The translations under genes and the position numbers were made by a program. Shown here piece by piece: positions 8,469-55,611 of a DNA stretch of 64,000 nucleotides. The notes under the pieces were generated by a model. It was not told where the DNA came from. It ran no database searches and worked only from the letters and a program-made list of their open reading frames with translations. The stretch is from NCBI GenBank assembly GCA_030123605.1, contig CP126123.1, forward strand, positions 3,437,237 to 3,501,236, given 5' to 3'. This DNA comes from Nitrospira sp. (GTDB lineage: Bacteria; Nitrospirota; Nitrospiria; Nitrospirales; Nitrospiraceae). Position 1 is the stretch's first letter. The number at the start of each line of letters is the position of its first letter.

Positions 8469-8721
8469 ATTGCCTCCCACGAGGGAACCATCGCCTGAAG
8501 ATGGCTCCGGTTCCTGAAATCCTGCGATCGGACACGTATTCATCCCTGTGTTGATAAACCATCCGGAACAGCGTTGTCCAATCTCAGGGACCATGCCATT
8601 TCTGCGGCAGCCTTCTATGAGAAGGGGCAGATCGGCTTTTTCAAACCAGGGAACAGGTGACCTGCTCGGACGAATCCATTTCTTGCTCCGTGAGGAGAAT
8701 TCCCGTATACAGAACGATACA

Positions 8722-8775
8722 CAGGGGATGGAGTCCCCCGTATAACCGCCTCGCCAGGCTGATGACTCCTACGCT
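8722..8775 (+). ncRNA. Fluoride riboswitch (crcB motif)
   Basis: GGGGATGGAGTCCCCCGTATAACCGCCTCGCCAGGCTGATGACTCCTAC matches the consensus GGnGAUGGnGUUCnCC...AACCGC...GCUGAUGACUCCUAC, including pseudoknot complementarity (GGAGT/ACTCC); lies about 90 nt upstream of an antiporter gene. Confidence 0.9.
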
Positions 8776-8862
8776 ACGACGATCGTAGCGCCGGAGCTGT
8801 CGCCCATCGGACGACAGAGCTGTGAGGTGGTTGCTTTTTTGTCCGAAACGGAGGACTCCTCG

Positions 8863-10068
8863 ATGGAACAGCTCTTTGCGACTGCCGCCCTGTGGTTCGC
8901 CCTCGCCCTTCTCTCCGCCCTGCTCGCCGCGCAACTGCGCTTGTCGATCGCCTTGGTCGAAATCTGCGTCGGGGTCGGTATGGCGGCCCTCACCGGCTGG
9001 TTCGATGTCCGTGATGCGTTGGCGTCGCATGCCGAGTGGGTGAAGTTCCTCGCCTCTGCCGGAGCCGTGGTCTTGACCTTTCTCGCCGGGGCGGAATTGG
9101 ACCCCGACGTGATCCGGATGAAATTGACGGAAGTCACTGTCGTGGGACTGGTGGGGTTTCTGGCCCCTTTTCTGGGCTGCGCCGCCGTCGCGTTCTACGG
9201 ACTCGGATGGAATCGGCAGGCCAGCGTGTTGTGCGGCATCGCCCTGTCCACGACATCGATGGCCGTGGTTTACGCGGTGATGCTGGAAACCGGCTTGAAT
9301 AAGACCGAATTCGGCAAGGGTATTCTCGCGTCCTGCTTCGTCAATGACCTGGGAACGGTGATTGCCCTTGGGTTGCTGTTCGCCCCGTTCACCTACAGGA
9401 CCCTGGTCTTTCTTGCGGCAGGAACGGCAGTCCTTGCGGCTTTGCCGGCATTGACGGAACGGCTGACCAGACTCTATGCGTTTCGTACGGCCGCGATCCG
9501 GACCAAATGGGTCATGCTGATCTTGTTTGGATTGGGCGCCCTCGCCCTCTGGTCGGGAAGCGAAGCGGTTCTCCCGGCCTACCTCGCGGGCATGGTGCTG
9601 GCCGGCAGTGCGGCAAGGGATAACCATTGGATTCGCCGGTTGCGGACCATGACGGTGGGGTTTCTCACCCCGTTTTATTTCATTCGAGCCGGGACGTTGG
9701 TCTCGCTGCCGGCGTTACTGGCAGCTCCCCTCGTCTTCCTCGCCCTCCTCATGGGCAAGGTCGCCTGCAAGATTTTCGGCCTCTATCCCGTGATCGGCCT
9801 CTTCCGCCGCGAGCGAACCGAACGTTGGTATTACACCTTGCTGATGTCCACCGGCCTGACCTTCGGGACCATTTCAGCCCTGTATGGGTTGACACACGGT
9901 ATCGTGACACAGGGCCAGTATTCATTTTTGGTCTCAGCCGTCATCGCGAGCGCAGTGGTGCCGACAGCCATTGCGGGGCTGTTCTTCATGCCGACACAAC
10001 TTCTGCCGGAATCGGCCCTTCCCGGTAAGCCGGTCCGTCGGCTGAACGGCCCGAGCGATGAGGGGTAG
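8863..10068 (+). CDS. Cation:proton antiporter (CPA/Na+/H+ exchanger family)
   Basis: About 12 TM segments; STTSMAVV and VNDLGT CPA motifs; GGAGG RBS before ATG 8863. Confidence 0.88.
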   Translation: MEQLFATAALWFALALLSALLAAQLRLSIALVEICVGVGMAALTGWFDVRDALASHAEWVKFLASAGAVVLTFLAGAELDPDVIRMKLTEVTVVGLVGFLAPFLGCAAVAFYGLGWNRQASVLCGIALSTTSMAVVYAVMLETGLNKTEFGKGILASCFVNDLGTVIALGLLFAPFTYRTLVFLAAGTAVLAALPALTERLTRLYAFRTAAIRTKWVMLILFGLGALALWSGSEAVLPAYLAGMVLAGSAARDNHWIRRLRTMTVGFLTPFYFIRAGTLVSLPALLAAPLVFLALLMGKVACKIFGLYPVIGLFRRERTERWYYTLLMSTGLTFGTISALYGLTHGIVTQGQYSFLVSAVIASAVVPTAIAGLFFMPTQLLPESALPGKPVRRLNGPSDEG

Positions 10069-42489: not shown

Positions 42490-42685
42490 CTAGCCCACAT
42501 TATTCATGAACCCTTCTACTGCAATCGCCGATCCGCTGCTACGACGAGCCTTCGGCCGGCGGGCTCGCCCCTCGTTCCCTCAACGTACTGCACGAGTACG
42601 CCTCGGGTCCTTACGGCTCCGCGCGCCGGTCTCGCGACGCGGCTCCGCGATTTCGCCACGAACCGTCATGAATACTGTGGGCTAG
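42490..42685. mobile_element. MITE-like element copy C (196 bp, opposite orientation to A and B)
   Basis: CTAG-CCCACATTATTCATGA...TCATGAATACTGTGGG-CTAG. Confidence 0.88.
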
Positions 42686-43716
42686 CGCGCCGGCGCGGGA
42701 GCCCCCTTTCGGACTTCTTCCTCCAATGTCGCCAGGCGTTGTTCGAGGCGCCGGATGATTTCGAGGAGGCGTTGATTGGTTTCCTGGAACGCCGGCTGAG
42801 TGCTCTCGATCGGGGCAGGCGTTGTCGGAAGGGGTGAGGTATCACCCCGTTTCAGCTTCAATTCTAGGTCTTCCTTCGATCGTTCCAATTCGGAGATCCG
42901 GCGTTGCAGATCGGCAATGACCTTGGCCTCATCCTTGCCGAAGTGCTCCTGTTGAGCCGACTGCTTCACTTCTTCCACCCGTTTGGCCCGGTCGGGGTTC
43001 GACGCCAAAAACGGCCGGTAGGCAATTCCCAACGTCCGTTCCGGATACCCGAACAGGTCGCCTCGGCGGCTCTGTCTCTGATACTGCGGATCGTCGAAAA
43101 AGATCGCGAAGTCCTGTTCGCCGACGGAGAACCATGGATGGGCTCGGACGTAGTCCGTGGTTTCCCGCACATCCTCCAACTTGTCGATCGCTCCCACGTC
43201 CGATTGCCGGCGTCGGATCGGATGCCGGAAGTTGGCGATCATCACATAGAGGATCTCGTTCTGCACGAACAATGTTCCTGAGGTGACGGTCGATTGACCT
43301 TCCTGGCCGGGATGCTCGCAGGAAAAGGTGACGACTTCATCCGGTTTCGCCTGTTCGAGTGCCTCCTTGAGCGACGGAGCCAGGACCTCGATCTCTTTTG
43401 GTTCAAAGAGCCTTGGCGTGCCGGGAGTGCCGAGAAACGACCGCAGCAGACCGATTTTGTTACGGCCTGAAATGGAGGTCAGGAGGATCTCCAGCTGGTC
43501 CTCGCTGAACGGGACCGGGTGGTCGTGGGCGATTTCACCTGCCGCAGGTATCCGTCCGTTTGGTTCCAGCCGCACGATCGCATCGGGACTTTCATGGATG
43601 GTCCGTGCGGCAGGCAGCGTGGTCGTACATCCGCCTATGAGCAGTCCCATGGTAACGAAGGCGAGCCAGCGCGCTCGTGTCGTTCGATTCGTTGCGGGTT
43701 CGTGAAGCCGGTCCAT
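42682..43716 (-). CDS. Putative lipoprotein with C-terminal coiled coils
   Basis: Lipobox LIGGC; heptad-like LQRRISELE and IRRLEQRLATLEEE; starts ~20 nt after the aioA stop. Confidence 0.75.
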   Translation of the reverse strand: MDRLHEPATNRTTRARWLAFVTMGLLIGGCTTTLPAARTIHESPDAIVRLEPNGRIPAAGEIAHDHPVPFSEDQLEILLTSISGRNKIGLLRSFLGTPGTPRLFEPKEIEVLAPSLKEALEQAKPDEVVTFSCEHPGQEGQSTVTSGTLFVQNEILYVMIANFRHPIRRRQSDVGAIDKLEDVRETTDYVRAHPWFSVGEQDFAIFFDDPQYQRQSRRGDLFGYPERTLGIAYRPFLASNPDRAKRVEEVKQSAQQEHFGKDEAKVIADLQRRISELERSKEDLELKLKRGDTSPLPTTPAPIESTQPAFQETNQRLLEIIRRLEQRLATLEEEVRKGAPAPAR

Positions 43717-43735
43717 AAGCAAACATTCGCCGCAG

Positions 43736-46198
43736 CTACGATTGATTCGTCGGAATAAAGGTCAGACGCTCTTGCCACTCGGGCAACGCGCCGACTTTTC
43801 TGATACCGGCTTTGGTGCCCTTATAATAGGGGATCGTCGTGGCGGGGTCGACATAGCCCGTGGTCAAGCTGTTCAGCCAGCCATTCGGATGTTCGAACAA
43901 CATAAAGACATGCCCGGGTCGATTCGAGTCCACAAGGACCGCCATCGCCGTGACACTCCCGTACGGATTGAACAGTTCGATCAGGTCGCCGTTGGCCACC
44001 GCTAGCTTCGCCGCATCCTCCGGATGAAGTTCCACGAACGGCAGCGGCTCACGTCCCGCCACGTATGGCTTGCGCAGGTCGTCGTACAGGGTTTGCCAGC
44101 CGTGGTTGGATCGTCCGTTGTTCACCCAGAAGGGATAACGGTTGTCGTCCATGAGTTGCCGGATCGGCGCGGGATAGCCGGGCCACTTTGCCGGAATGAA
44201 GGTGAACCGCCCCCCCTCTTCATAGAGCCGTACTGTCCCGACGGGTGTGCCGTTTTCGATCCTCTTCACCGGTGTCTGCACGCCGTTGGTGCCGAGTGTT
44301 TTCAGCATGGCATAGGTGGTCTCGCCGTAATCTTCCTGAGCTCCTTTGACGCCGACCGCTGCCGCGCGAAAGACTTCTTCATCCGTCTGCCAATCGAATC
44401 CGCTGAAGCGCGCGGCCCTGTCCTGCTTGCCCTCATCGAGATACAGGCGTTCGATGCGTTGCGCCATCATCGCCATGATTTTCCAGTCCGGTTTCGCCAC
44501 GCCGGGCGGATCCATGAATTTCTGGTACAGTCGCAGCCGGCGTTCGCCATTGATCGACGTGAGGTTCATTTCACCCCATTGCGCGGCTGGAAATACCACA
44601 TGGGCAAATTTCGCGGTTTCGATCGGATAGATGTCCTGCACTAGGAGGAACAGACCCCCCTGTTTCATCGCGTCGAGGAGGGCGGCGACCCGTTGCTCCA
44701 TCGTCCTGCCTGCCGTCCGGTCCAACGCGTGGTTGACGAGTGCCGTCCGTCTTGCCAATGTGAGACGAAATTGTTGGGCGTTGAGTGTGCCCCCTGCCGG
44801 ATTGCAGCCGGCCACCCAAAAGACTTTGGATGCGCCTCCGTTGATCGCGACCTCATCGACGTTGACCGGTGGGCGTGTGCCCGGATAGTCGGGTCGGCTG
44901 TACCCTTCCTGATGGCCGCCCAGTCTCCCGCAGCCCGTGCCGGGCTTGCCGAGATTGCCGGTGAGGAGGGCGAGATCCACGACCGAGGCGACGTTTTCAT
45001 AGTTCTTCAGTCCCCAGATCAACCCCTTCTCATAGAGAAACAATGTTCGACGCCGGACGTTCGGGGCCTTCGGTTTCGCGATCCATTCGGCCGCCTGTAA
45101 CAGTTGAGCCTTGGACAGACCGGTCAGCGCGCTTGCTTCGTCGAGGTCCTGCGTCAGGTTGGTCGCCTTCATCGCGTCGAAGTTCTCGGTCTGCCGATCG
45201 ATGAACGCCTGATCCTGCCACCCTTGCTCATAGATCAAGCGGGACAAGGCATTCATCAACAGCATGTCGGTGCCGTTCCGGAGTTGCAGATGCAGAACGT
45301 TGTGTTTTCCCGCGGCAGACTCGGCGATCGCGACTGTTGACGTGCGCCGAGGGTCCACGATGATCATTTTCCCGGCCGCATGGGGCTCCTGCGGCAAGAG
45401 TTGCTTCTTCTTGGAGAGGGATGCCCCCGTCAGGTTGGGCAGCATGTGTTCGAGGAAATAGATGGATTGGGTTTCGTAGGAATTGGCTCCGACCAGGACG
45501 ATCGTGTCGGCCAGTTCCGCATCCAGGTAGGCGGAGGGAAGGGCGGCGATGCCCGCATCACGAGAGGCGAAGACCTCGCTGTTGTAGGCCGGCCGGTTGT
45601 GGATCGAGGCCATTTTGGTGCCGATGCCGGTGAAGAAAAATTTTCCGACCGCCCAATTGTTTTCGAAACCGCCTCCGCCTCCTCCGTGATCGAAGCACTT
45701 CATCGCCACGGTATCCGGCCCCCATGTGTCCATCGCGGCCTTGATCACGCGGGCACCCAGATCGATCGCCTCCTGCCAGGTCGTGGGCAGCTGAGTGCCG
45801 CCCCGATAGATCAACGGATGGAGGAGCCGGTCCGCCGTAGGACGATCCGGCGCATAGAGCACCGAGCCGTGCGTGCCGCCGCGAATCGAGTGATTGCCTC
45901 GGTTGACCACGCAGTCACTGTCCGGAAGCACGACCACGTGCGACTGGTTGCCGTCGTGGTCCGTGACGACGCTGTGCATCGCGGGCGAGATCCATTTCCC
46001 GGATTGTGCCGCCTGCTGTCTGGTGAAATCGGCCTGCAGAGCATTTTGCTCCGGCTTCGGTCCGCCCTCTTGCCCCTGCGGCCACTTGTAGACCCGATAG
46101 CCGCAGCCCACGATGCAATAGGAACAGACGGTGGTGAATTGTTCCGCATCGCGTGGGGGGATCGGCACCCGGTCTGGTCCATGGAAAATTGTGCTCAT
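43736..46198 (-). CDS. aioA: Arsenite oxidase large (molybdopterin) subunit
   Basis: CSYCIVGCGY [3Fe-4S] motif, HNRPAYNSE signature, EKGLIWG, RLGGHQEG, SINGERRLRLY, NNGR. Confidence 0.96.
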   Translation of the reverse strand: MSTIFHGPDRVPIPPRDAEQFTTVCSYCIVGCGYRVYKWPQGQEGGPKPEQNALQADFTRQQAAQSGKWISPAMHSVVTDHDGNQSHVVVLPDSDCVVNRGNHSIRGGTHGSVLYAPDRPTADRLLHPLIYRGGTQLPTTWQEAIDLGARVIKAAMDTWGPDTVAMKCFDHGGGGGGFENNWAVGKFFFTGIGTKMASIHNRPAYNSEVFASRDAGIAALPSAYLDAELADTIVLVGANSYETQSIYFLEHMLPNLTGASLSKKKQLLPQEPHAAGKMIIVDPRRTSTVAIAESAAGKHNVLHLQLRNGTDMLLMNALSRLIYEQGWQDQAFIDRQTENFDAMKATNLTQDLDEASALTGLSKAQLLQAAEWIAKPKAPNVRRRTLFLYEKGLIWGLKNYENVASVVDLALLTGNLGKPGTGCGRLGGHQEGYSRPDYPGTRPPVNVDEVAINGGASKVFWVAGCNPAGGTLNAQQFRLTLARRTALVNHALDRTAGRTMEQRVAALLDAMKQGGLFLLVQDIYPIETAKFAHVVFPAAQWGEMNLTSINGERRLRLYQKFMDPPGVAKPDWKIMAMMAQRIERLYLDEGKQDRAARFSGFDWQTDEEVFRAAAVGVKGAQEDYGETTYAMLKTLGTNGVQTPVKRIENGTPVGTVRLYEEGGRFTFIPAKWPGYPAPIRQLMDDNRYPFWVNNGRSNHGWQTLYDDLRKPYVAGREPLPFVELHPEDAAKLAVANGDLIELFNPYGSVTAMAVLVDSNRPGHVFMLFEHPNGWLNSLTTGYVDPATTIPYYKGTKAGIRKVGALPEWQERLTFIPTNQS

Positions 46199-46230
46199 GA
46201 GGTCGCCCCTTCTTCGATTCGGTTGTGGTG

Positions 46231-46755
46231 TTATCCGAGAATATTCGCTCGTCGGCCATAGACCAATCCCATGATCCCGACTGCATAGATGTCGCCCGTC
46301 CCGTCCACCTCCAATCGGATTTGCGGAAGGTTGTCGGTGGCTTGTCCGATGACCGTCAGGCCGCCCTTGGCCGCATCGAACCGGGCATAGTGCAACGGGC
46401 AGTGGAAGGCTCCGGTGTCCGGTCGAAAATCCAGCGCCCCGCCCATGTGGCTACAGAGGCGACTGTAGGCGACGATGTCGGAGTCCGGTCCGATTCCATT
46501 GATCGCCTTCTTACCCAGTTTCAGCAGGCTGATCGGCGAGTCGTTGTCGGGGTAGGTCAATCTTATTTCGACGCCCGCTTTGAGTTGCGCGCTGTTGGCG
46601 AGCTTGAGGCGTGGGTAGGGCAACACCGTTGTGATGGTCGGCCGGTCCGGGGCCTCTCGTGAAGCCGCAGCTTCAGAGAGTGCTTCACCGGCACACACTC
46701 CTCCTGCCGCGCAGGCACCGAGCTTCAGAAAACTTCTTCGCGACATCCCGCTCAT
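46231..46755 (-). CDS. aioB: Arsenite oxidase small Rieske subunit, Tat-exported
   Basis: SRRSFLK twin-arginine signal; CSHMG and CPLHYARFD Rieske boxes; YPDNDSP, GIGPDSDIVAYS, LVYGR. Confidence 0.96.
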   Translation of the reverse strand: MSGMSRRSFLKLGACAAGGVCAGEALSEAAASREAPDRPTITTVLPYPRLKLANSAQLKAGVEIRLTYPDNDSPISLLKLGKKAINGIGPDSDIVAYSRLCSHMGGALDFRPDTGAFHCPLHYARFDAAKGGLTVIGQATDNLPQIRLEVDGTGDIYAVGIMGLVYGRRANILG

Positions 46756-46800
46756 GCTGAGACTCCTTTCTCCGCCGGTTCGTGTCGTCTAGGCTCGCCG

Positions 46801-48276
46801 TTACAATACATATTGGAATCGAGTGAAGATTTCGTAGATATGCCGTTCGACCCCCGTCGCCTGGGTTCGGTTTGCCAAGAAACTCCCCATGAAGGCATGG
46901 GCGGCGCCTACGTCCAGGTTGAGATTCTTGGCGAGGTTGTAGGTCAACATGGCGCCGTTCTCCGTCCCCATGTATGTAGAACCACCACGGGTTCCAAAAT
47001 CGCGCGACCTGGCGGCCGAGAAGTAGGCGCTTTCCAAGGTGCCGGTCAGTTTGGGCACGATGGGGAATTTCAGCTGTCCTTGTACGGTCCAGAGTCCGGC
47101 CCCTCCGTTATTGAGGTTCGTCCCGAAATCGTTCACGTCGCCCGGTGCATTGGCATTGAAAATGTGTGAATAGCCCCAATAGCCGTTGGTGCCGAGAATG
47201 GCTTCCGGGGTCGTGAACTGGTTGGCGGTGTATCCGGCCTTGTCGCCCGAGGCGTACAGCATGAAGAGATTCACAGTCGTGGCTCCGATCGGCAGACTGC
47301 CTTCGAACTTTCCCGAATAGCCGGTATGGTTGTTGCCGGTCAACCCGGTTCCGATACGGCCGGTATTGAGCATAAGGTAACCGTTCCAAGCCCCGATTCC
47401 GAACAGCGATCCCGACGCCGTCAGAGCCGCCCAATGTTCATGGGTGTCGCCGATGTCGATGTTCTCGGTCTTGCCGAGGTTCATCGTATAGTAGTGCCCG
47501 CCGACTTTCAGATCGTAGCCGCCCATTGTGATCGGCTTGTTGTAATCCACGACCCACATGTCGCCGTTCTTGCCGAATCCCGTCCCGATCGTGCCGGCTT
47601 TCAAGTCCGAGGCAAAGCGGTAAAACCCGACTCGATAGTCGCCGTCGCCGATTTTTCCACCGAGCGCCGCGCCGCCCACGAAGAAATCCCATTCACCGTC
47701 CCAGAGCACCCGCCCGACCTGGTCCATGGTGGGGAGAATGCCCACGACCAAGGTGTGGTTTTCGATCGGCGTCACATAGATGTACCCGTAACGAATCCCA
47801 CGCGCCTGGAGGCGGTTGAACGCGTTGGGCGTTCCATCGACATTGGCGCCCGATTCTCCGCGCGGATCGCTCGCAGCGGGGCTCGATCCTCCGAATCCGC
47901 CGCGATATTCCATCTGGAAATAGCCGCCGACATTGTCGGAACCCTTGGGGCGAATGTCGAAGGCCAGCCGCATGCGTTGCCGCGCAAAATCATAGCCCGT
48001 CGTATCGCCGAAGTTAAGCCGCCCCGGGCCTGTTCCGGCCGAGGGTAATGATCCGCTGTTGACTCCGCTCGGAATGTTGCTCGCGTTGAACATGATCCGA
48101 TACTGAGCCCAGACGCGCAGGCGGATGTTCTCGATCGGCACGGCGTAGGCATTTTCGTTGGCCGGTTCCGGGAAGGGGATCTGATCGGCGCAGGCGGAGG
48201 TTGTCACGAGGAAGTGCGCCCCATTCAGAATAATTATCAGCGCAAGGAATGCGAGGTTCAGTTGCTGGTTCTTCAT
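46801..48276 (-). CDS. Outer-membrane beta-barrel/porin-like protein
   Basis: Sec signal; alternating amphipathic beta-strands rich in G/Y/F/N; C-terminal IFTRFQYVL. Confidence 0.75.
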   Translation of the reverse strand: MKNQQLNLAFLALIIILNGAHFLVTTSACADQIPFPEPANENAYAVPIENIRLRVWAQYRIMFNASNIPSGVNSGSLPSAGTGPGRLNFGDTTGYDFARQRMRLAFDIRPKGSDNVGGYFQMEYRGGFGGSSPAASDPRGESGANVDGTPNAFNRLQARGIRYGYIYVTPIENHTLVVGILPTMDQVGRVLWDGEWDFFVGGAALGGKIGDGDYRVGFYRFASDLKAGTIGTGFGKNGDMWVVDYNKPITMGGYDLKVGGHYYTMNLGKTENIDIGDTHEHWAALTASGSLFGIGAWNGYLMLNTGRIGTGLTGNNHTGYSGKFEGSLPIGATTVNLFMLYASGDKAGYTANQFTTPEAILGTNGYWGYSHIFNANAPGDVNDFGTNLNNGGAGLWTVQGQLKFPIVPKLTGTLESAYFSAARSRDFGTRGGSTYMGTENGAMLTYNLAKNLNLDVGAAHAFMGSFLANRTQATGVERHIYEIFTRFQYVL

Positions 48277-48386
48277 GCCGCCCTTTCTTTCGATCTGCCG
48301 GGTATGTATATCAACATATCTCAATGTATCGATGTCATGGCCGGGAGAATCCGACCGTCGCGTTTTGCAACCCCTGTGATTGAGAA

Positions 48387-49538
48387 TTAAGAGCCCGAGG
48401 AGGATCTCGTGAGCACCCACTCGACAAGGAGATAGGCCGCACCGGCAAAGAAGGCGCTTGCCGGGAGGGTGACGACCCAGGCCAACAACATGTCCCGCAC
48501 GGTTCGCCATTGGATCGTGCGCCAGCCGCGCAGGAAGCCGATCCCGATAATGGCGCTGCTACTGAGATGCGTGGTGGAAACCGGCAGGCCGAGCGTCGCA
48601 GACGTAAGCACCAGAGATGAGGTCGTCACATTGGCCGAGAGTCCTTCGATGTGGTCCATTTTCGTGACCTTCTCCGCCAGGACCTCCGTCACCCGCCGGC
48701 CGCCCCAATAGCTTCCCAGCCCCATGGCAAGGGTGGCTCCGCCGAAGGTCGTAACTTGCAGCAGTGGGCTCGGCCACGTAGCGACGCCGCTTCCGAGCAA
48801 CAGGATGGCGGCGATCTTGGGGGTATCGTTGGCTCCCCTGGCAAAGGCCGTGAGACCGCTCGATAACCAATGCAGACTGTCCAGACCGATCACGAACCCT
48901 TTCAGCCCCTCACGCTCACACTGGGCCGGGACCGCCGCGATCGGTGTCCGGAATCCAGTCGCTTGATAGAGCGTTCTCGTGCCACCTTGTGCATCGACCA
49001 TGATGAGCGCGCGGTAGGTGGGCGTGAGGCACAGACAGGAACCTTTCCACCTGGTTGCCATGCGTTTGATCAACGGATAGAACAGGAGCGCGACCACGAG
49101 GGCAAAGAGCGGACTTAACAAGAGAGGTAATCCGATCTTCTTCACGAGACTCGACCAGATCAATTGCTCGAAGCCGTAGGCTAAAAGGCCGGTTCCTACC
49201 AATGATCCCATCAATGCATGGGTGGTCGAAACGGGCAGGCCTGTTTTTGATGCCAACAGCACCCAGGCTACGGAGCCGGTGAGGACCGAAATTGCCAGCG
49301 ACGGTTGGATGGTGGCTTGTGTCGGTAAAAATCCTGTGCTGAAGGTCTTCACCATGGCGGTTGCGAGGAAAGCCGACAATCCTGCGCCGGCGATCGTCCA
49401 ACAGGTTCCCCACACGATGGCGGTGCCGTAGTTCGTGACCCCGCTCCCCACGAGGGTGGCGATGGACTTCGATACATCGTTCGTGCCGTTTGCGAATGCG
49501 AGCAAGAGCACAAGTATGAAGGTGAACGTGGTCAGCAT
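48387..49538 (-). CDS. PiT (inorganic phosphate transporter) family protein
   Basis: Two PiT signatures ANGTNDVSKSIAT and ARGANDTPK; two PVSTTH motifs. Confidence 0.9.
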   Translation of the reverse strand: MLTTFTFILVLLLAFANGTNDVSKSIATLVGSGVTNYGTAIVWGTCWTIAGAGLSAFLATAMVKTFSTGFLPTQATIQPSLAISVLTGSVAWVLLASKTGLPVSTTHALMGSLVGTGLLAYGFEQLIWSSLVKKIGLPLLLSPLFALVVALLFYPLIKRMATRWKGSCLCLTPTYRALIMVDAQGGTRTLYQATGFRTPIAAVPAQCEREGLKGFVIGLDSLHWLSSGLTAFARGANDTPKIAAILLLGSGVATWPSPLLQVTTFGGATLAMGLGSYWGGRRVTEVLAEKVTKMDHIEGLSANVTTSSLVLTSATLGLPVSTTHLSSSAIIGIGFLRGWRTIQWRTVRDMLLAWVVTLPASAFFAGAAYLLVEWVLTRSSSGS

Positions 49539-49588
49539 CCCAAGGAGTCGTCCATCGTCGAGGGTTCTTACGGCGCAACGCCGGGTCA

Positions 49589-49942
49589 TTAATGACTGGT
49601 GCGGCTCCGGAGAATGGTTTCTGGAAAGGTCAGTTGGCAGCAGCCGAAGTCGAGGGCCTGTGCTTTTGTCGCGGTCAATGCCCGCCGGAACTGAGGGTTG
49701 ACTCTGTAGCAAATCCGTTGCCCCTCGCGGATGCCCTCGATGAGTCCTGCATGCCGCAATATCCGGAGGTGGTGAGAAACATGCGGCTGCGATTTTTGGA
49801 GTTCGGAAACCAAATCCGTGACACATTGTTCGTGTGTCAGCAACGATTCGAGAATCCTCAGGCGGGTCTTGTCTCCCAATGCTCGTAACAGATCGGCGCA
49901 CTCGCCGGTGCTCAGGACGTCTGTGGGCGTAGATTTCACCAT
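49589..49942 (-). CDS. arsR: ArsR/SmtB family transcriptional repressor with C-terminal vicinal Cys pair
   Basis: LRALGDKTRLRIL, SQPHVSHHLRILRHAGLI wHTH; DFGCC; GGGGAGGG RBS. Confidence 0.88.
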   Translation of the reverse strand: MVKSTPTDVLSTGECADLLRALGDKTRLRILESLLTHEQCVTDLVSELQKSQPHVSHHLRILRHAGLIEGIREGQRICYRVNPQFRRALTATKAQALDFGCCQLTFPETILRSRTSH

Positions 49943-50056
49943 GGGCCACACCCTCCCCGCTTTGACGGTGTTCGCTGCAGGACCCTGTTGATTCGGACGT
50001 TCAGGGCTTGAAGTCGTATAAAAGTAACTGCATGTATCAATTAGTCGGTCTCGGAG

Positions 50057-51247: not shown

Positions 51248-52486
51248 ATGAAACAAGCAGCGGCTGGTCTGAGGGAGGGCCTCTGCGGAGAGCCGCGACA
51301 GGCAAAGCCTTCGCCCTGTCGCTCGGCGTTTCACCTGCTCATCTGGGTCATCCTCCTGGCGGGTGCCGGCTGTGAGCGTGATCCGCCGGCAGGACCTCCG
51401 GTCGGAAAGTTGGCCGCCAGGGCCGCCGAAGGGGTCGTGCATCTCGCCGCGCATGAAATCGCCCGAGCCGGCATCGAGGTGCGGGCGGTCAAGAAAGAGC
51501 CCTTCCCCCTCCATCGTGAGTTTCCCGCCACGGTTCAAGCCAATGAAAACGAACTCGCCGAAGTGACGACCCTCATCCGGGGGCGGGTGGTCGAGGTGTC
51601 GGTCGATGTGGGCAAGGATGTGAAAAGGGGGGAGCGCCTCGCGTTGCTCGACAGCGCCGATTTGGGCGTGGCGGAAGGGGCCTACCTCAAGGCGGCGGCC
51701 AAGCAACATGAGGCGCAACTCGTCTATGAGCGTGCGACCGATCTCCATCAACACCGGGCGATCAGCCTGGCGGAGGTGCAACGCCGGGAAGCGGAGATGA
51801 AAACCGCACGGGCGGACGCGCGGGAAGCTTCCAATCGCCTCGCGCTCCTCGGGGTGCCGACCCAGGAGATCCGACGGCTCGATCGCGAGCAGACCATCAG
51901 GTCCGATGTCGCGCTTCGGGCGCCGTTCGCGGGCCGGGTGATCATGCGCGATATTACGCGTGGCGAAGTGGTGGAGATCTCGCAGAAATGTTTCACCGTC
52001 GCCGACCTGTCCGATGTGTGGGTCGTCGGGAGCGTACCGGAGAAGGATGTGCGTTTCATCCGTCCGGACCAGACGGTCGAAGTCGCCGTTGCAGCCTATC
52101 CACATGCGCTCTGGTCGGGCACCATCACCTACATCAGCGATGTGCTCGACCCGGCGACCAGGACCATGCGGCTCCGCGTGACGGTGAAGAATCCAGACCG
52201 GATCTTGAAGCCGGAAATGTTCGCCACGGTTCATGTCTATGCTATGCCGGCTCAGGAGCTGCTGACGGTGCCGTTGGCGGCGGTGCAAAACGACGGGACA
52301 GGCAGGATCGTCTTCGTCCGCAAGGGGGAGGATCGATTCGAGCCGCGCCGAGTGGCGCTGGGAAATGAGCAGGGCGAGAACATCGCTGTGCTGGAGGGAC
52401 TGCGGCAAGGGGAGGAGGTGGTGGTGAAGGGGGCCTTTGCCCTCAAGTCGGAGGTAGAAATCCACAAGCTCGAGCCATCGCCATGA
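51248..52486 (+). CDS. RND efflux periplasmic adaptor (CzcB/CusB family)
   Basis: Lipobox-like LAGAGC; VDVGKDVKRGERLA, LRAPFAG, DLSDVWV, LDPATRT, LKPEMF. Confidence 0.92.
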   Translation: MKQAAAGLREGLCGEPRQAKPSPCRSAFHLLIWVILLAGAGCERDPPAGPPVGKLAARAAEGVVHLAAHEIARAGIEVRAVKKEPFPLHREFPATVQANENELAEVTTLIRGRVVEVSVDVGKDVKRGERLALLDSADLGVAEGAYLKAAAKQHEAQLVYERATDLHQHRAISLAEVQRREAEMKTARADAREASNRLALLGVPTQEIRRLDREQTIRSDVALRAPFAGRVIMRDITRGEVVEISQKCFTVADLSDVWVVGSVPEKDVRFIRPDQTVEVAVAAYPHALWSGTITYISDVLDPATRTMRLRVTVKNPDRILKPEMFATVHVYAMPAQELLTVPLAAVQNDGTGRIVFVRKGEDRFEPRRVALGNEQGENIAVLEGLRQGEEVVVKGAFALKSEVEIHKLEPSP

Positions 52487-55400
52487 TCGTCTCCTTGCTG
52501 GAATTCTCCCTGCGCCAACGGATCTTGATCATCGGAGTGGCTTGTCTCTGTGCGGTCGCCGGTATCGTGGCCTTCCGGTCACTTCCCATCGACGCCTATC
52601 CCGACGTCACCAACGTGCAGGTGCAGGTGCTGACGGACGCGCCGGGCCTGTCCCCGGTCGAAGTCGAACGGTTCATTACCTATCCCATCGAACTCCAGAT
52701 GACCGGATTGCCGGGATTGACGGAAATCCGCTCGCTCTCGAAGTTCGCGCTCTCACAGGTGACGGTGGTCTTCGAAGACGATGTGGATGTGTATTTCGCC
52801 CGCCAGTTGGTGCTGGAGCGGATGATGGTGGTCAAGGAGCGGCTTCCGGCCGGGGTCGATCCGGTCATGGCCCCGGTGACGACCGGGCTGGGCGAGATCT
52901 ACCAGTATTATCTTGAGGGGCCGCATGGCGCGGCGGGTGATCCGACTTTGGTCGAAACAGAGCTGACGAATCAGCGGACGCTGCAGGACTGGGTGCTCCG
53001 CCCCTTGCTCAAGGGCGTTCCCGGGGTGATCGACGTGAACGGTTTGGGCGGGTTTGTGAAGCAGTTTCAGGTGCTGGTCGATCCCGCCAAGTTGCGGAAG
53101 TACGGCCTCACCCTGCACGAGGTTTATGAATCTGTGGGAAAGAACAACGCCAATGCCGGCGGCAACGTCCTGGAGCGGCACGCAGAGCGCGCCATCGTCC
53201 GCGGGCTGGGGCTCATCAAGGCAGTCCCGGACATCGAGAGCATCATCGTCAAGGAAGCGGGCGGCACCCCGGTGTTCGTCCGCGATGTGGCGGAGGTGCG
53301 CATCGGGCATGCGGTTCGTCATGGGGCTGCGGTGTTGAACGGCGAGCGGGAGGTGGTGGCCGGCACGGTGTTGATGTTGCGCGGGGGGAACGCGCGGGAA
53401 GTCGTCCAGGCGGTGAAGCGCAGGGTGGAGTCGATCCAGCAGAGCGCGCTGCTGCCGAAGGGCCTGACGATCGTGCCGTTCTACGACCGCATCGAACTCG
53501 TGACGGCGGCCATCAATACGGTGCGTGATGCGTTGATCGAAGGGATCGTTCTGGTGACCGTGGTGTTTTTCCTGTTCCTCGGCCATGCGCGCAGCGCTAT
53601 TGTGGTCACGGCATCGCTGTTGGTGACGCCCTTGATCACCTTCTTAGTCATGCAGCGTGTGGGGCTTACCGCGAATCTTATGACGCTGGGCGGGCTGGCG
53701 ATCGGGATCGGTGAAATTGCCGACGGTTCGTTGGTCGTGGTGGAGAACATCTATCGCCATCTGTCCGAGAATCGGATCCAGCAACGATCCCGCCTCGAAG
53801 TGATTCGACGGGCGACGAGCGAAGTGGGACGACCCATCCTGTTCGGCATCCTCATCATCAGCGTCGTATTTCTGCCCTTGATGACCTTGCACGGCATGGA
53901 GGGAAAAATGTTCGCCCCCCTGGCCCATGCGCTGGTGATCTCGCTGCTGGTGTCGGTCGTCGTGACCTTGACCCTCTCGCCGGTGCTCGCATCGCTGGTG
54001 TTGCGCGGCGACCATCCTGAAGACACCAGACTGACCCTGTGGATGAAGACGCGCTATCAGCCGTTGTTGCGATGGACGCTCTCCCATCCGCTGTGGGTGC
54101 TGGCGGGATCGACTGCCATCGTGCTGGTGAGCCTGGTGCTTCTGCCGTTCGTGGGACGGGAATTCATTCCCATCTTGGAGGAAGGGGCGTTGACGCCTCA
54201 GATCGTACGGCTGCCGAGCGTGTCGTTGCAGGAGTCGATCGACATCGAGAAGCAGGCCCACAGGGCCATGCTGGAGTTTCCGGAAGTGCGGCTCGCGGTG
54301 AGCAAGATCGGGCGGCCCGATATCGCCGTCGGCCCGGAGGAACCGAACGAGAGTGACCCGATCGTCACGCTGCGCCCCCGCGACACCTGGACCACCGCAC
54401 ACAGCCAATCCGGCCTCGTCGATGCCATCAGGAAGCGACTGGCTGAGATCCCCGGCATTTCCGTCCTCATGAGCCAGCCGATTCAAGAACGGGTGGATGA
54501 GTTGATTTCCGGGATCCGGACGGAATGCGCCGTCAAACTGTTCGGCGACGACCTGGATCTGCTGTCTCAGCATGCGGAGGCGATCGCCGACTTGATGCGG
54601 ACCGTCGAGGGGGTGAAAGACGTCAAGGTCGAACAGGTGGCGGGCCAACCCTACCTGACGGTGGACATCGACCGGCAGAGAATCGCCCGATACGGAATCA
54701 ACGTGTCGGATGTGCAGGAGATCATCACGACTGCGGTGGGCGGCAAGCCTGCGACGCAGGTGTACGAAGGCGAACGCCGGTTTCAGTTGATCCTCCGGTT
54801 TCCGGAGCGCTCGCGCAACAGCATCGGGGCCATCGGGGACATCCGGGTGCGTTCGGCGTCCGGCGCGCCGATTCCGTTGAGCGAACTGGCTGCCATCGAC
54901 ATGCGGGAAGGTCCGGCGCGCATCAGCCGCGAGCAGGCGAAGCGCCGCATCTATATCGGTTTCAACGTGGTGGGGCGGGACATCGGCAGCGTCGTCGACG
55001 AAGGCCGGAGGAAACTGGCCGAACGGGTTCGCCTGCCGCAAGGGTACACGGTGACGTGGGGCGGAGCCTTTGAAAATATGGAACGGGCCAATGCGCGGCT
55101 CCTGTTCGTGGTGCCGGTCACGCTCGGGTTGGTGTTTTTTCTGTTGTTTTGGGCGTTTCATTCCCTGCGGTACGCGTCCTTGATCATGTTGAATCTGCCG
55201 TTCGCCTTGATCGGCGGGGTGTTGTCCCTGTGGCTCAGCGGCCAGTACCTGAGTGTTCCGGCCTCTATCGGTTTCATTGAGTTGTTCGGGTTGGCCGTGG
55301 GGAACGGCATCGTGCTCGTGTCGTACATCAACCAGTTGCGAAACGGAGGTCTGCACACGGAGGCGGCGATCATGACCGGTTGCCTGTTGAGGCTTCGTCC

Positions 55401-55611
55401 CGTGATCATGACCATGATGACCACCTTGCTCGGCCTATTGCCGCTGGCGTTGGCTCAGGGGATCGGCGCGGAGGTACAGCGGCCGCTGGCCACGGTCGTC
55501 GTGGGCGGCCTGTTCACCTCGACTGCGTTGACGTTGGTGGTGCTCCCGGCCCTGTATCGAAGTTTTGCCGAACCGGAGATGGTGGAGGAGCATGCGCCGG
55601 AATGGGTGTGA
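52483..55611 (+). CDS. CzcA/CusA family heavy-metal RND permease
   Basis: LPIDAYPDVTNVQVQV, NLMTLGGLAIGIG, EGKMFAPLA, RLRPVIMT, GAEVQRPLATVVVGG. Confidence 0.95.
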   Translation: MIVSLLEFSLRQRILIIGVACLCAVAGIVAFRSLPIDAYPDVTNVQVQVLTDAPGLSPVEVERFITYPIELQMTGLPGLTEIRSLSKFALSQVTVVFEDDVDVYFARQLVLERMMVVKERLPAGVDPVMAPVTTGLGEIYQYYLEGPHGAAGDPTLVETELTNQRTLQDWVLRPLLKGVPGVIDVNGLGGFVKQFQVLVDPAKLRKYGLTLHEVYESVGKNNANAGGNVLERHAERAIVRGLGLIKAVPDIESIIVKEAGGTPVFVRDVAEVRIGHAVRHGAAVLNGEREVVAGTVLMLRGGNAREVVQAVKRRVESIQQSALLPKGLTIVPFYDRIELVTAAINTVRDALIEGIVLVTVVFFLFLGHARSAIVVTASLLVTPLITFLVMQRVGLTANLMTLGGLAIGIGEIADGSLVVVENIYRHLSENRIQQRSRLEVIRRATSEVGRPILFGILIISVVFLPLMTLHGMEGKMFAPLAHALVISLLVSVVVTLTLSPVLASLVLRGDHPEDTRLTLWMKTRYQPLLRWTLSHPLWVLAGSTAIVLVSLVLLPFVGREFIPILEEGALTPQIVRLPSVSLQESIDIEKQAHRAMLEFPEVRLAVSKIGRPDIAVGPEEPNESDPIVTLRPRDTWTTAHSQSGLVDAIRKRLAEIPGISVLMSQPIQERVDELISGIRTECAVKLFGDDLDLLSQHAEAIADLMRTVEGVKDVKVEQVAGQPYLTVDIDRQRIARYGINVSDVQEIITTAVGGKPATQVYEGERRFQLILRFPERSRNSIGAIGDIRVRSASGAPIPLSELAAIDMREGPARISREQAKRRIYIGFNVVGRDIGSVVDEGRRKLAERVRLPQGYTVTWGGAFENMERANARLLFVVPVTLGLVFFLLFWAFHSLRYASLIMLNLPFALIGGVLSLWLSGQYLSVPASIGFIELFGLAVGNGIVLVSYINQLRNGGLHTEAAIMTGCLLRLRPVIMTMMTTLLGLLPLALAQGIGAEVQRPLATVVVGGLFTSTALTLVVLPALYRSFAEPEMVEEHAPEWV

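Follow-up and report, generated by a model that had tools for sequence, protein, structure and literature searches.

The arsenite oxidase locus of Nitrospira: a fixed four-gene cassette of porin, aioB, aioA and lipoprotein genes next to arsR and a PiT transporter gene

Phosphate transporters, the regulators AioXSR, ArsR and PhoB, the periplasmic enzyme and the acceptor of its electrons all have a place in models of bacterial arsenite oxidation, but the passage of substrate and product through the outer membrane has none. A row of six genes in the genome of a Nitrospira sp. (GenBank assembly GCA_030123605.1, a single 4.316-Mb contig) raises this question, and with it the question of which genes belong to an arsenite oxidase locus. 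The genes arsR, a PiT transporter gene, a porin gene, aioB, aioA and a lipoprotein gene (here termed X) are consecutive open reading frames (ORFs) on the minus strand at positions 42682-49951 of the window, i.e. of the whole 64,000-nt stretch analysed (contig CP126123.1, positions 3,437,237 to 3,501,236). The gaps between them are, in this order, about 50, 110, 45, 32 and 13-19 nt long, and none contains a terminator-like site. An initial annotation had read the row as one atypical, self-contained module. The locus is here interpreted, with moderate confidence, as two layers: a four-gene core, porin-aioB-aioA-X, and an arsR-PiT pair that comes from the resident ars island.

For comparison, 20 aio loci of Nitrospira/Nitrospiraceae were tabulated by tblastn (loci and genomes are cited by L and G numbers). 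The order porin>aioB>aioA>X was found in 20/20 loci. The genes upstream of this cassette were arsR-PiT in the window, L022, L001 and L023, arsM-arsR-arsS-PiT in loci of the N. defluvii type (L024, L026-L030), and arsM-arsR-arsS-pstSCAB in L004, L032 and L036 as well as, in partial view, in L033 and L037. L031 has arsR alone and L009 nothing related. Downstream, a convergent arsC-acr3-arsM-arsR set was present in many of the Nitrospira loci.

Presence and absence of the core genes were determined in 151 Nitrospiraceae genomes using profiles of AioA, porin and X. AioA was detected in nine genomes. The porin profile matched exactly eight, those with an AioA of about 1000 bits, and always beside aioA. 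Full-length X was found in the same eight genomes and in a decayed locus of G124, and only directly after aioA. The ninth AioA (G068; L125, G068:C453), from another Nitrospiraceae genus, belongs to a divergent AioB/AioA-like pair with 29% identity to the AioA of the window; it scored 396 bits on TIGR02693, just above the cut-off, and neither porin nor X was present beside the pair on the 6 kb examined. Porin and lipoprotein, which the initial annotation had grouped with the enzyme, are strictly co-inherited with this aioBA.

Deletion scars were found in three of the genomes. In G124 (L122, G124:C130), arsM-arsR-arsS-PiT is followed by a fragment encoding AioA residues 513-820 and then by X, the porin gene being gone along with aioB and part of aioA. 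In G148 (L124, G148:C32) and G116 (L123, G116:C1) only the C-terminal part (third) of X is left, which in G148 sits between arsS and Band7. The aio cassette has therefore been lost by deletion in some lineages. In the aio-less Nitrospira sp. NS4 (L079) the order is arsM2>arsS>PiT, followed by convergent arsC<acr3<arsR and Band7, and aio-less CG24E (L080) likewise has arsM2>arsS>PiT. The stop codons of PiT and arsC in L079 are 35 bp apart, and this is the exact site taken by the cassette of about 5.7 kb in L011 and L028. Arsenic islands of Nitrospira consist of a resident arsM-arsS-PiT/ars island and a separable aio cassette that is found intact, relocated or as scars.

The cassette is preceded by an element of its own. 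In 19 distinct Nitrospira loci an alignable, AT-rich quasi-palindrome of about 35 bp (approximate consensus ACATATAGACATATCTCCATGYATTKATGTATCAG) lies 40-70 nt ahead of the porin start. It is present irrespective of the preceding gene, which may be PiT, PstB, ArsR or one with a VTT domain. When a weight matrix was built without the window copy, the best match in the entire window was at 48297-48346, in the PiT-porin gap (11.2 against a background of -74 +/- 15). The element is a candidate promoter/operator of the four-gene cassette. Correctly spaced GG/GC elements of a sigma-54 promoter were not seen in this gap on inspection by eye, and a consensus promoter and terminator scan of the locus was uninformative.

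The large subunit, with molybdopterin and [3Fe-4S] cofactors, is encoded by aioA (43736-46198, minus strand). AioA scored 1039.7 bits on TIGR02693 (cut-off 359) and contains PF18465 (N-terminal [3Fe-4S] domain, Rieske_3; 3.7e-41), PF00384 and PF01568. It matched A. faecalis Aio (1G8J_A) over residues 9-814 with 761 bits; the stretches IHNRPAYNSE and R-x-GGHQEGY are identical in both proteins, and we take them to hold the catalytic His/Glu/Arg/His residues. The Rieske small subunit is encoded directly upstream by aioB (46231-46755, minus strand). AioB scored 154.3 bits on TIGR02694 (cut-off 95.65) and 131 bits against the solved AioB chain 8R3A_B, and carries the Tat motif SRRSFLK. By these sequence features, AioBA is a canonical arsenite oxidase, predicted to be exported by the Tat pathway to the periplasm.

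The porin gene (46801-48276, minus strand) encodes a 491-aa protein with a signal peptide, the start being set at MKNQQ because homologs are 487-493 aa long. No match was obtained in Pfam (E <= 0.01) or NCBIfam, and a PDB sequence search with a profile of 31 homologs gave nothing at E <= 1. Comparison with the family models of OprO/OprP (PF07396), Alginate_exp and OprD gave no membership in these sequence families. An AlphaFold model computed with the 31 homologs (pLDDT 75, pTM 0.76) has about 18 strands. The best Foldseek match was AlgE (3RBH; E 8e-17, TM 0.60/0.71), followed by Campylobacter MOMP, OccK/OccD channels and OprP, the latter being weaker (E 1e-10, TM 0.43-0.50); identity to the matched structures was 8-15%. 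The protein models as an AlgE/OprD-like 18-stranded outer-membrane channel, in support of the porin label of the initial annotation. Charged residues invariant in the family are R60, R99/R101/R103 (alternating on one strand), E123/R125, R139, R155, R159, R162 and R215. AlgE and OprP are anion-selective and have conserved arginines. By analogy, the invariant arginines suggest an anion-selective lumen.

Outside Nitrospira, porins of this uncurated family are encoded beside periplasmic enzymes of the dimethyl sulfoxide (DMSO) reductase superfamily, which carry a molybdenum-bis-pyranopterin guanine dinucleotide (Mo-bisPGD) cofactor, in several phyla. In a survey of 41 non-Nitrospira loci, with one genome per species, an enzyme of the DMSO reductase family was encoded within 5 kb of the porin in 27. 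Most of the other 14 have a contig end near the porin, and only L043, L046 and L060 extend by more than 1.5 kb on both sides. The partner enzymes fell into five groups: AioBA (46-47% identity; porin gene next in line downstream), found in Sulfurihydrogenibium yellowstonense SS-5, an unclassified bacterium and metagenome-assembled genomes (MAGs) of Aquificaceae and, in one case, Calditrichaceae; Arr/Arx-like enzymes with 1134 and 1124 bits on the ArrA model, below its cut-off of 1600; Ttr-like enzymes; Psr/Phs-like enzymes; and an Fdh/Nas-like clade in Nitrospinota and Nitrospirota without family assignment. In L038, L068, L069 and L071 (Nitrospirota and Nitrospinota MAGs) the distance between the porin and a Tat-type molybdoenzyme is 0.3-0.8 kb; the enzyme, about 850 aa long, matched no NCBIfam equivalog and gave its best partial matches with Fdh-alpha, PhsA and NasC. 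Genes for FeS subunits, TorD-type chaperones and NrfD-like proteins often accompany the porin-linked molybdoenzymes. In a maximum-likelihood tree, the aio-porins of Nitrospira form one clade (100/100) nested among Psr-, Arr- and Ttr-linked porins, and those of Aquificota and Calditrichota, with the opposite gene order, form a separate one. By this topology, the porin family changed enzyme partners more than once. Exit of arsenate through the porin would be at least as likely as entry of As(III), because the family arginines are invariant and the other partner enzymes look anion-acting.

Further genes were recorded at loci of this porin family. Several Aquificaceae porin loci (L047, L050, L057, L058, L059, L062) include a gene for a periplasmic protein of about 290 aa that appears AioX-like by eye, and a sigma-54 regulator is also present at L047, L050 and L059. 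A conserved protein of about 140 aa (no NCBIfam match) is encoded after the aio-linked porin in L051, L054, L057 and L058. In L052 and L053 (Calditrichaceae and the unclassified bacterium) the porin is followed by a signal-peptide protein of 155-166 aa, cupredoxin-like by eye and a possible electron acceptor.

X (42682-43722, minus strand) encodes 346 aa. Its signal peptide and lipobox cysteine support, at the level of sequence, the lipoprotein label given in the initial annotation. No Pfam or NCBIfam family was assigned, no relative was found among PDB sequences, and the searches yielded only coiled-coil noise. In an alignment of 23 homologs, X is 344-346 aa long and consists of a signal/lipobox region, an alpha+beta domain of about 200 aa, a Pro/Ser-rich linker and two long C-terminal helices. 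The lipobox is a hydrophobic N-terminal stretch followed by [ST/I/N]-[GA]-C, in which C32 is kept in at least 90% of the homologs; the motifs GLLRSF, PGTPRLF, VTSG, SVGEQDFAxFFDDP and YPERTL are strongly conserved. A structure model (pLDDT 72.5) was searched against the PDB, and the best hit (ketosteroid isomerase-like, E 0.26, TM <0.2) permitted no assignment. No CXXCH/haem or copper-site pattern and no conserved cysteine besides that of the lipobox was found in X. A role as redox partner or carrier was rejected on these grounds, and the suggestion that the lipoprotein wires the enzyme is unlikely to hold.

Relatives of X were found throughout the family. An exhaustive profile search returned a handful of full-length representatives and 722 of the N-terminal domain of about 150 aa, which occurs in 2-10 copies per genome in 149 of the 151 Nitrospiraceae genomes. 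Residues ~165-245 of X, including SVGEQDFAxFFDDP and YPERTL, are specific to the aio-linked subfamily. The contexts of X paralogs were sampled in 36 Nitrospiraceae genomes (L083-L104 and others; in the genome studied here, 1359517-1362957 and 1366626-1369836). In the commonest arrangement (16/36), genes for a PhoB-like regulator and a PstS-like protein precede the X-paralog gene, which faces a Porin_O_P gene (106 bits). The second, seen at four loci, has the order Porin_O_P-like > ModA-like binding protein > X-paralog; it occurs twice in the genome studied here, once in N. defluvii and once in another genome. In the third, the paralog lies beside an OEP/TolC-type gene. No homology between the aio porin and the outer-membrane-protein-like neighbours of the paralogs was detected with hhalign. 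Judged by these neighbourhoods, the X family comprises uncharacterised Nitrospiraceae lipoproteins that are seemingly part of oxyanion uptake systems.

Upstream of the cassette, arsR (49589-49951, minus strand) encodes an ArsR/SmtB metalloregulator (NF033788 87.5 bits, cut-off 55; PF01022, HTH_5, 62.7 bits, 2.9e-17). A GTG at 49951 opens the ORF (120 aa), and an ATG at 49942 is the better fit to the orthologs. All 14 distinct Nitrospira orthologs compared keep C18, C43, C80 and the vicinal cysteines C103-C104 (FGCC[QE]L). Only one cysteine of the classical CVC motif is present, and the vicinal C-terminal pair presumably resembles the A. ferrooxidans type. This set of cysteines is compatible with sensing of As(III).

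The PiT gene (48387-49538, minus strand) encodes a protein that covers positions 1-350 of 350 of the PF01384 profile (227 bits, 4e-67) and remains below the cut-off of the PitA equivalog NF033774 (84 bits vs 800). Two central-loop motifs, G-x-C-L-C-x-x-P and P-[AS]-x-C-x-R, were present in 107 of its 120 top homologs, including those of aio-less Nitrospira, and the three-Cys loop is missing from the second PiT of the same genome (29% identical). From its sequence, the protein is classed as a divergent, ars-island subfamily of PiT with a three-Cys loop, not as PitA, and the loop as a trait of the subfamily, not of aio loci. Nitrospira homologs at 63-68% identity number in the thousands, far more than the aio carriers. 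The transporter that takes the place of PiT in L004 was identified as PstSCAB: PstC (249 bits, cut-off 196) and PstA (244, cut-off 193) exceed their thresholds, and PstB (326, cut-off 343) and the PstS-family protein (178, cut-off 207) are just below theirs. Its reading as a molybdate importer serving the Mo enzyme was rejected in favour of this assignment. Binding-protein-dependent ABC systems such as PstSCAB are importers. PiT and PstSCAB probably share a role in phosphate uptake; import of phosphate is the simplest common role because PstSCAB, a binding-protein-dependent system, replaces PiT in sister loci. The cysteine loop of PiT may have an arsenic-specific role.

From synteny and one predicted fold we infer the following roles for porin, X and PiT, in a reading that we regard as reasonably probable as a whole. 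The four-gene cassette has its own putative regulatory element, and its porin would be the private outer-membrane route of Aio, letting As(OH)3 reach the enzyme and, given the arginines, especially letting the product arsenate leave the periplasm. X would be an accessory of oxyanion traffic at the outer membrane/periplasm, either a partner of the porin or a handler of oxyanions; it might tether Aio nearby, and would not be a redox carrier. The arsR-PiT pair would be a remnant of a resident arsM-arsR-arsS-PiT arsenic island. ArsR, as the likely cytoplasmic As(III) sensor, would control both units, arsR-PiT and porin-aioBA-X. PiT, which is interchangeable with PstSCAB in sister lineages, would most likely secure phosphate uptake during arsenate production.

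Several observations weigh against this reading. Upstream of arsR, the matrix match of the AT-rich element is weak (50011-50054, 1.8, fifth best in the window); both regions being rich in AT, it suggests little. Members of the porin family that do not adjoin a molybdoenzyme exist (L007, L043, L046, L060). Direction and selectivity of a channel are not readable from its sequence, arsenite as As(OH)3 is uncharged, and the arginines may or may not face the lumen. The links between X paralogs and porins come from a few orthologous loci and not from many independent events, and in the commonest of these loci the porin is convergent to the paralog. X itself follows aioA, not the porin, with a 4-nt overlap between the aioA stop and the X start in L001 and L009; this position fits a partner of Aio equally well. 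The last point leads to an alternative in which X belongs to AioAB, as an additional (third) subunit, an assembly factor or a membrane anchor, and is unconnected to the porin. Besides the invariable position of X immediately after aioA and the 4-nt overlap, the segment ~165-245 specific to the aio-linked subfamily and the persistence of X beside the truncated aioA in G124 speak for it. Aio clusters outside Nitrospira, however, have the porin and no X; in Aquificota aio loci, tblastn detected no relative of X after the porin, and the small downstream genes there have no NCBIfam family. Solved Aio structures were deposited as AioA/AioB chains, and paralogs of the N-terminal domain of X occur at Aio-less loci beside anion porins and oxyanion-binding proteins. 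We consider this alternative somewhat unlikely, though it is the strongest of the competitors. At the other extreme, porin and X might be general envelope proteins that hitch-hike beside aioBA and are functionally unrelated to it. Both lack a curated family and a function established by experiment, and some porin homologs, e.g. in Hydrogenobacter thermophilus TK-6, are not beside any molybdoenzyme. This explanation is nevertheless very improbable, given that the porin is present in 8/8 Nitrospiraceae genomes with this AioA and in 0/143 others, that its linkage to aio recurs in two porin clades with opposite gene order (the second in Aquificota and Calditrichota), that a molybdoenzyme lies close by in most non-Nitrospira loci, and that decay of the cassette removed the porin together with aioB and part of aioA.

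The remaining alternatives concern the arsR-PiT layer and the degree of integration. The initial annotation had proposed that all six genes are one dedicated module in which the porin imports As(III), PiT solves the As(V)/phosphate conflict for Aio, and Aio is anchored or wired by the lipoprotein. As had been noted, the six genes point the same way and are closely spaced; the same six-gene order was found again in L001, L002, L022 and L023, and it occupies at least two genomic sites (with Usp/GNAT flanks in the window and L022, beside a sigma-54 pair in L001 and L023). The block also lies 42 kb from the remaining ars genes of its genome. Against these points stand the wide occurrence of the PiT subfamily, within arsM-arsS-PiT, in Nitrospira that lack aio, and its replacement by PstSCAB or absence at other aio-positive loci. 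In loci of the N. defluvii type, the cassette is part of a larger island that has arsS on the upstream and arsC-acr3-arsM-arsR on the downstream side. A conserved element of its own precedes the cassette, and X lacks a cofactor motif. We therefore judge the six genes not to be one evolutionary module, and the proposal in its full form is unlikely. It is partly vindicated, since in this lineage the six genes do form one block away from the ars island, and a phosphate transporter does usually adjoin the cassette. PiT might also be an arsenic handler, i.e. an exporter of arsenate or As(III) or an As(III)-gated channel, and not a phosphate importer. The three invariant central-loop cysteines, the altered first PiT signature (GTNDVSK replacing the one usual in the family) and the position of the gene after arsR or arsS in all contexts are in line with this, and another efflux route would be useful in a genome in which no match to Acr3 (TIGR00832) or ArsB (PF02040) was found anywhere. 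Its replacement in sister aio loci by PstSCAB, including a PstS-family binding protein, and the presence of both this PiT and Acr3 in most relatives make such a role doubtful; we know of no exporter in the PiT family. An extension of the two-layer reading would join porin, AioAB and X into one physical complex on the inner side of the outer membrane. X, anchored by its lipid and oligomerised via its C-terminal coiled coil, would dock Aio beneath the arginine-lined channel, and arsenite would be oxidised on entry and arsenate expelled via the same pore, without build-up near the phosphate transporters. The porin family would then supply the outer-membrane part that is missing from the picture of periplasmic respiratory enzymes of the Aio, Arr/Arx, Psr and Ttr types in many phyla. 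This extension is speculative and decidedly unlikely as a whole.

Proteobacterial aio clusters are described as aioXSR-aioBA-cytC with pst/phn genes (Li et al. 2013, PMC3834237; review PMC7533571). The locus studied here shares with them AioA and AioB above the equivalog cut-offs, the order aioB-aioA and the linkage to phosphate transport and ars genes. It differs in that aioXSR (Types I and II of PMC7533571), a cytochrome c gene and an azurin gene do not adjoin it, and in that an outer-membrane channel and a lipoprotein are fixed members; the words 'porin' and 'outer membrane' do not occur in the 2020 review of arsenite oxidation (PMC7533571). As summarised in that review, AioF of Thiomonas arsenitoxydans is an ArsR/SmtB regulator of aioBA (Moinier et al. 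2014); its gene is part of the aioBA operon, and the protein works together with AioXSR and binds DNA when arsenic is present. In both organisms an ArsR-family protein, a probable arsenic-responsive regulator, is encoded with aioBA; the ArsR of the window lies upstream with PiT and without AioXSR, and the two are compared by description. With AlgE, OprD/Occ and OprP/OprO of Pseudomonas, the porin has in common a predicted 18-stranded monomer-type barrel and conserved arginines, whereas its family is partnered with molybdoenzymes and not with alginate or phosphate-uptake genes. The only comparable mention of a porin with a molybdoenzyme found in the literature is a remark on Dissulfuribacter thermophilus (Desulfobacterota), in which an OprO/P-like porin is syntenic with a ttrBCA homolog and co-regulated with it in proteomics; its authors suggest that the porin imports substrate (PMC13490349, 2026). 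There, too, a porin gene lies beside that of a periplasmic molybdopterin oxidoreductase, but it was reported as an OprO/P homolog in an isolated remark on one organism, and the two cases are compared by description only.

The enzyme itself and aioBA in Nitrospira are already known. The aoxAB/aioAB genes of Candidatus Nitrospira defluvii were published by Lücker et al. 2010, as cited in PMC5767232 and bioRxiv 10.1101/138586, and the organism is listed among arsenic islands in PMC3834237. The passages on its aio genes in PMC5767232 and bioRxiv 10.1101/138586 mention only the two enzyme subunits, and no paper tying a porin or lipoprotein to aioBA was found in the literature. N. defluvii FP929003 (L028) has the same cassette, in the order arsM-arsR-arsS-PiT-porin-aioB-aioA-X followed by convergent arsC-acr3-arsM-arsR. 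The best homologs are from Nitrospira MAGs. The genome of the window is of another species than FP929003 (AioA 76%, porin 80%, X 43% identical); its block has no arsS, and arsC and acr3 are missing from the genome. The operon, called atypical in the initial annotation, is so with respect to the proteobacterial paradigm; within Nitrospira the arrangement is the norm and the locus a normal arsenite oxidase locus. New relative to the literature searched are the fixed four-gene cassette, a lipoprotein family that is specific to Nitrospiraceae and linked to oxyanion porins, the uncurated porin family that goes with periplasmic molybdoenzymes in several phyla, and the view of PiT/Pst as an exchangeable part of the ars island. 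The porin family is a concrete candidate for the missing outer-membrane step in arsenic and sulfur redox cycling, and may be an overlooked part of arsenic- and sulfur-handling molybdoenzyme pathways in many phyla. Should porin and X turn out to have no part in Aio function, what is left is the known Nitrospira aioBA in its customary surroundings.

The surroundings of the locus were inspected for further genes. No aioXSR genes were present among the window ORFs flanking the cluster, and ArsR, not AioXSR, is the adjacent regulator gene. By tblastn, acr3 and low-molecular-weight arsC were not found in the window, and CXXCH occurs just once in its 62 best ORFs, within a 343-aa protein resembling a zinc-type dehydrogenase, not a cytochrome. 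The absence of aioX/aioS/aioR, cytochrome c and arsC/acr3 from the window, as given in the initial annotation, was thus confirmed. The rest of the ars island, at genome positions 3,529,807-3,534,652, comprises Band7, arsR, arsM, arsS (radical SAM, arsenosugar type) and arsM2, a second arsM-like gene. A faint acr3 trace was detected between its arsM and arsS (tblastn E 0.036). One gene of the PF03960 ArsC/Spx family is located elsewhere (670654-670977).

In the window and in its closest relative (sister genome, L022) the block has common flanks, with a Usp gene upstream and a GNAT gene downstream. The aio loci L001, L023 and L009 adjoin a sigma-54 two-component pair, of which no ortholog was found in the window by tblastn. 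A reading of this sigma-54 regulator and CHASE3 kinase (L001, L009) as an analogue of AioSR was not adopted, because their ortholog in the genome studied here is 660 kb away from the locus, beside a formate/nitrite transporter gene, as in L001 and L009.

Two further features of the window were recorded. An HlyD/RND efflux pair (51248-55611, plus strand), located between the Usp gene and a hybrid histidine kinase gene, has no counterpart in L022, where about 0.5 kb separates the kinase flank from the Usp flank; it is either an insertion in the window genome or a deletion in L022. A fluoride riboswitch (RF01734, 56 bits vs a gathering score of 34) was identified at 8715-8778 (plus strand), just upstream of a 413-aa ORF (8827-10068).

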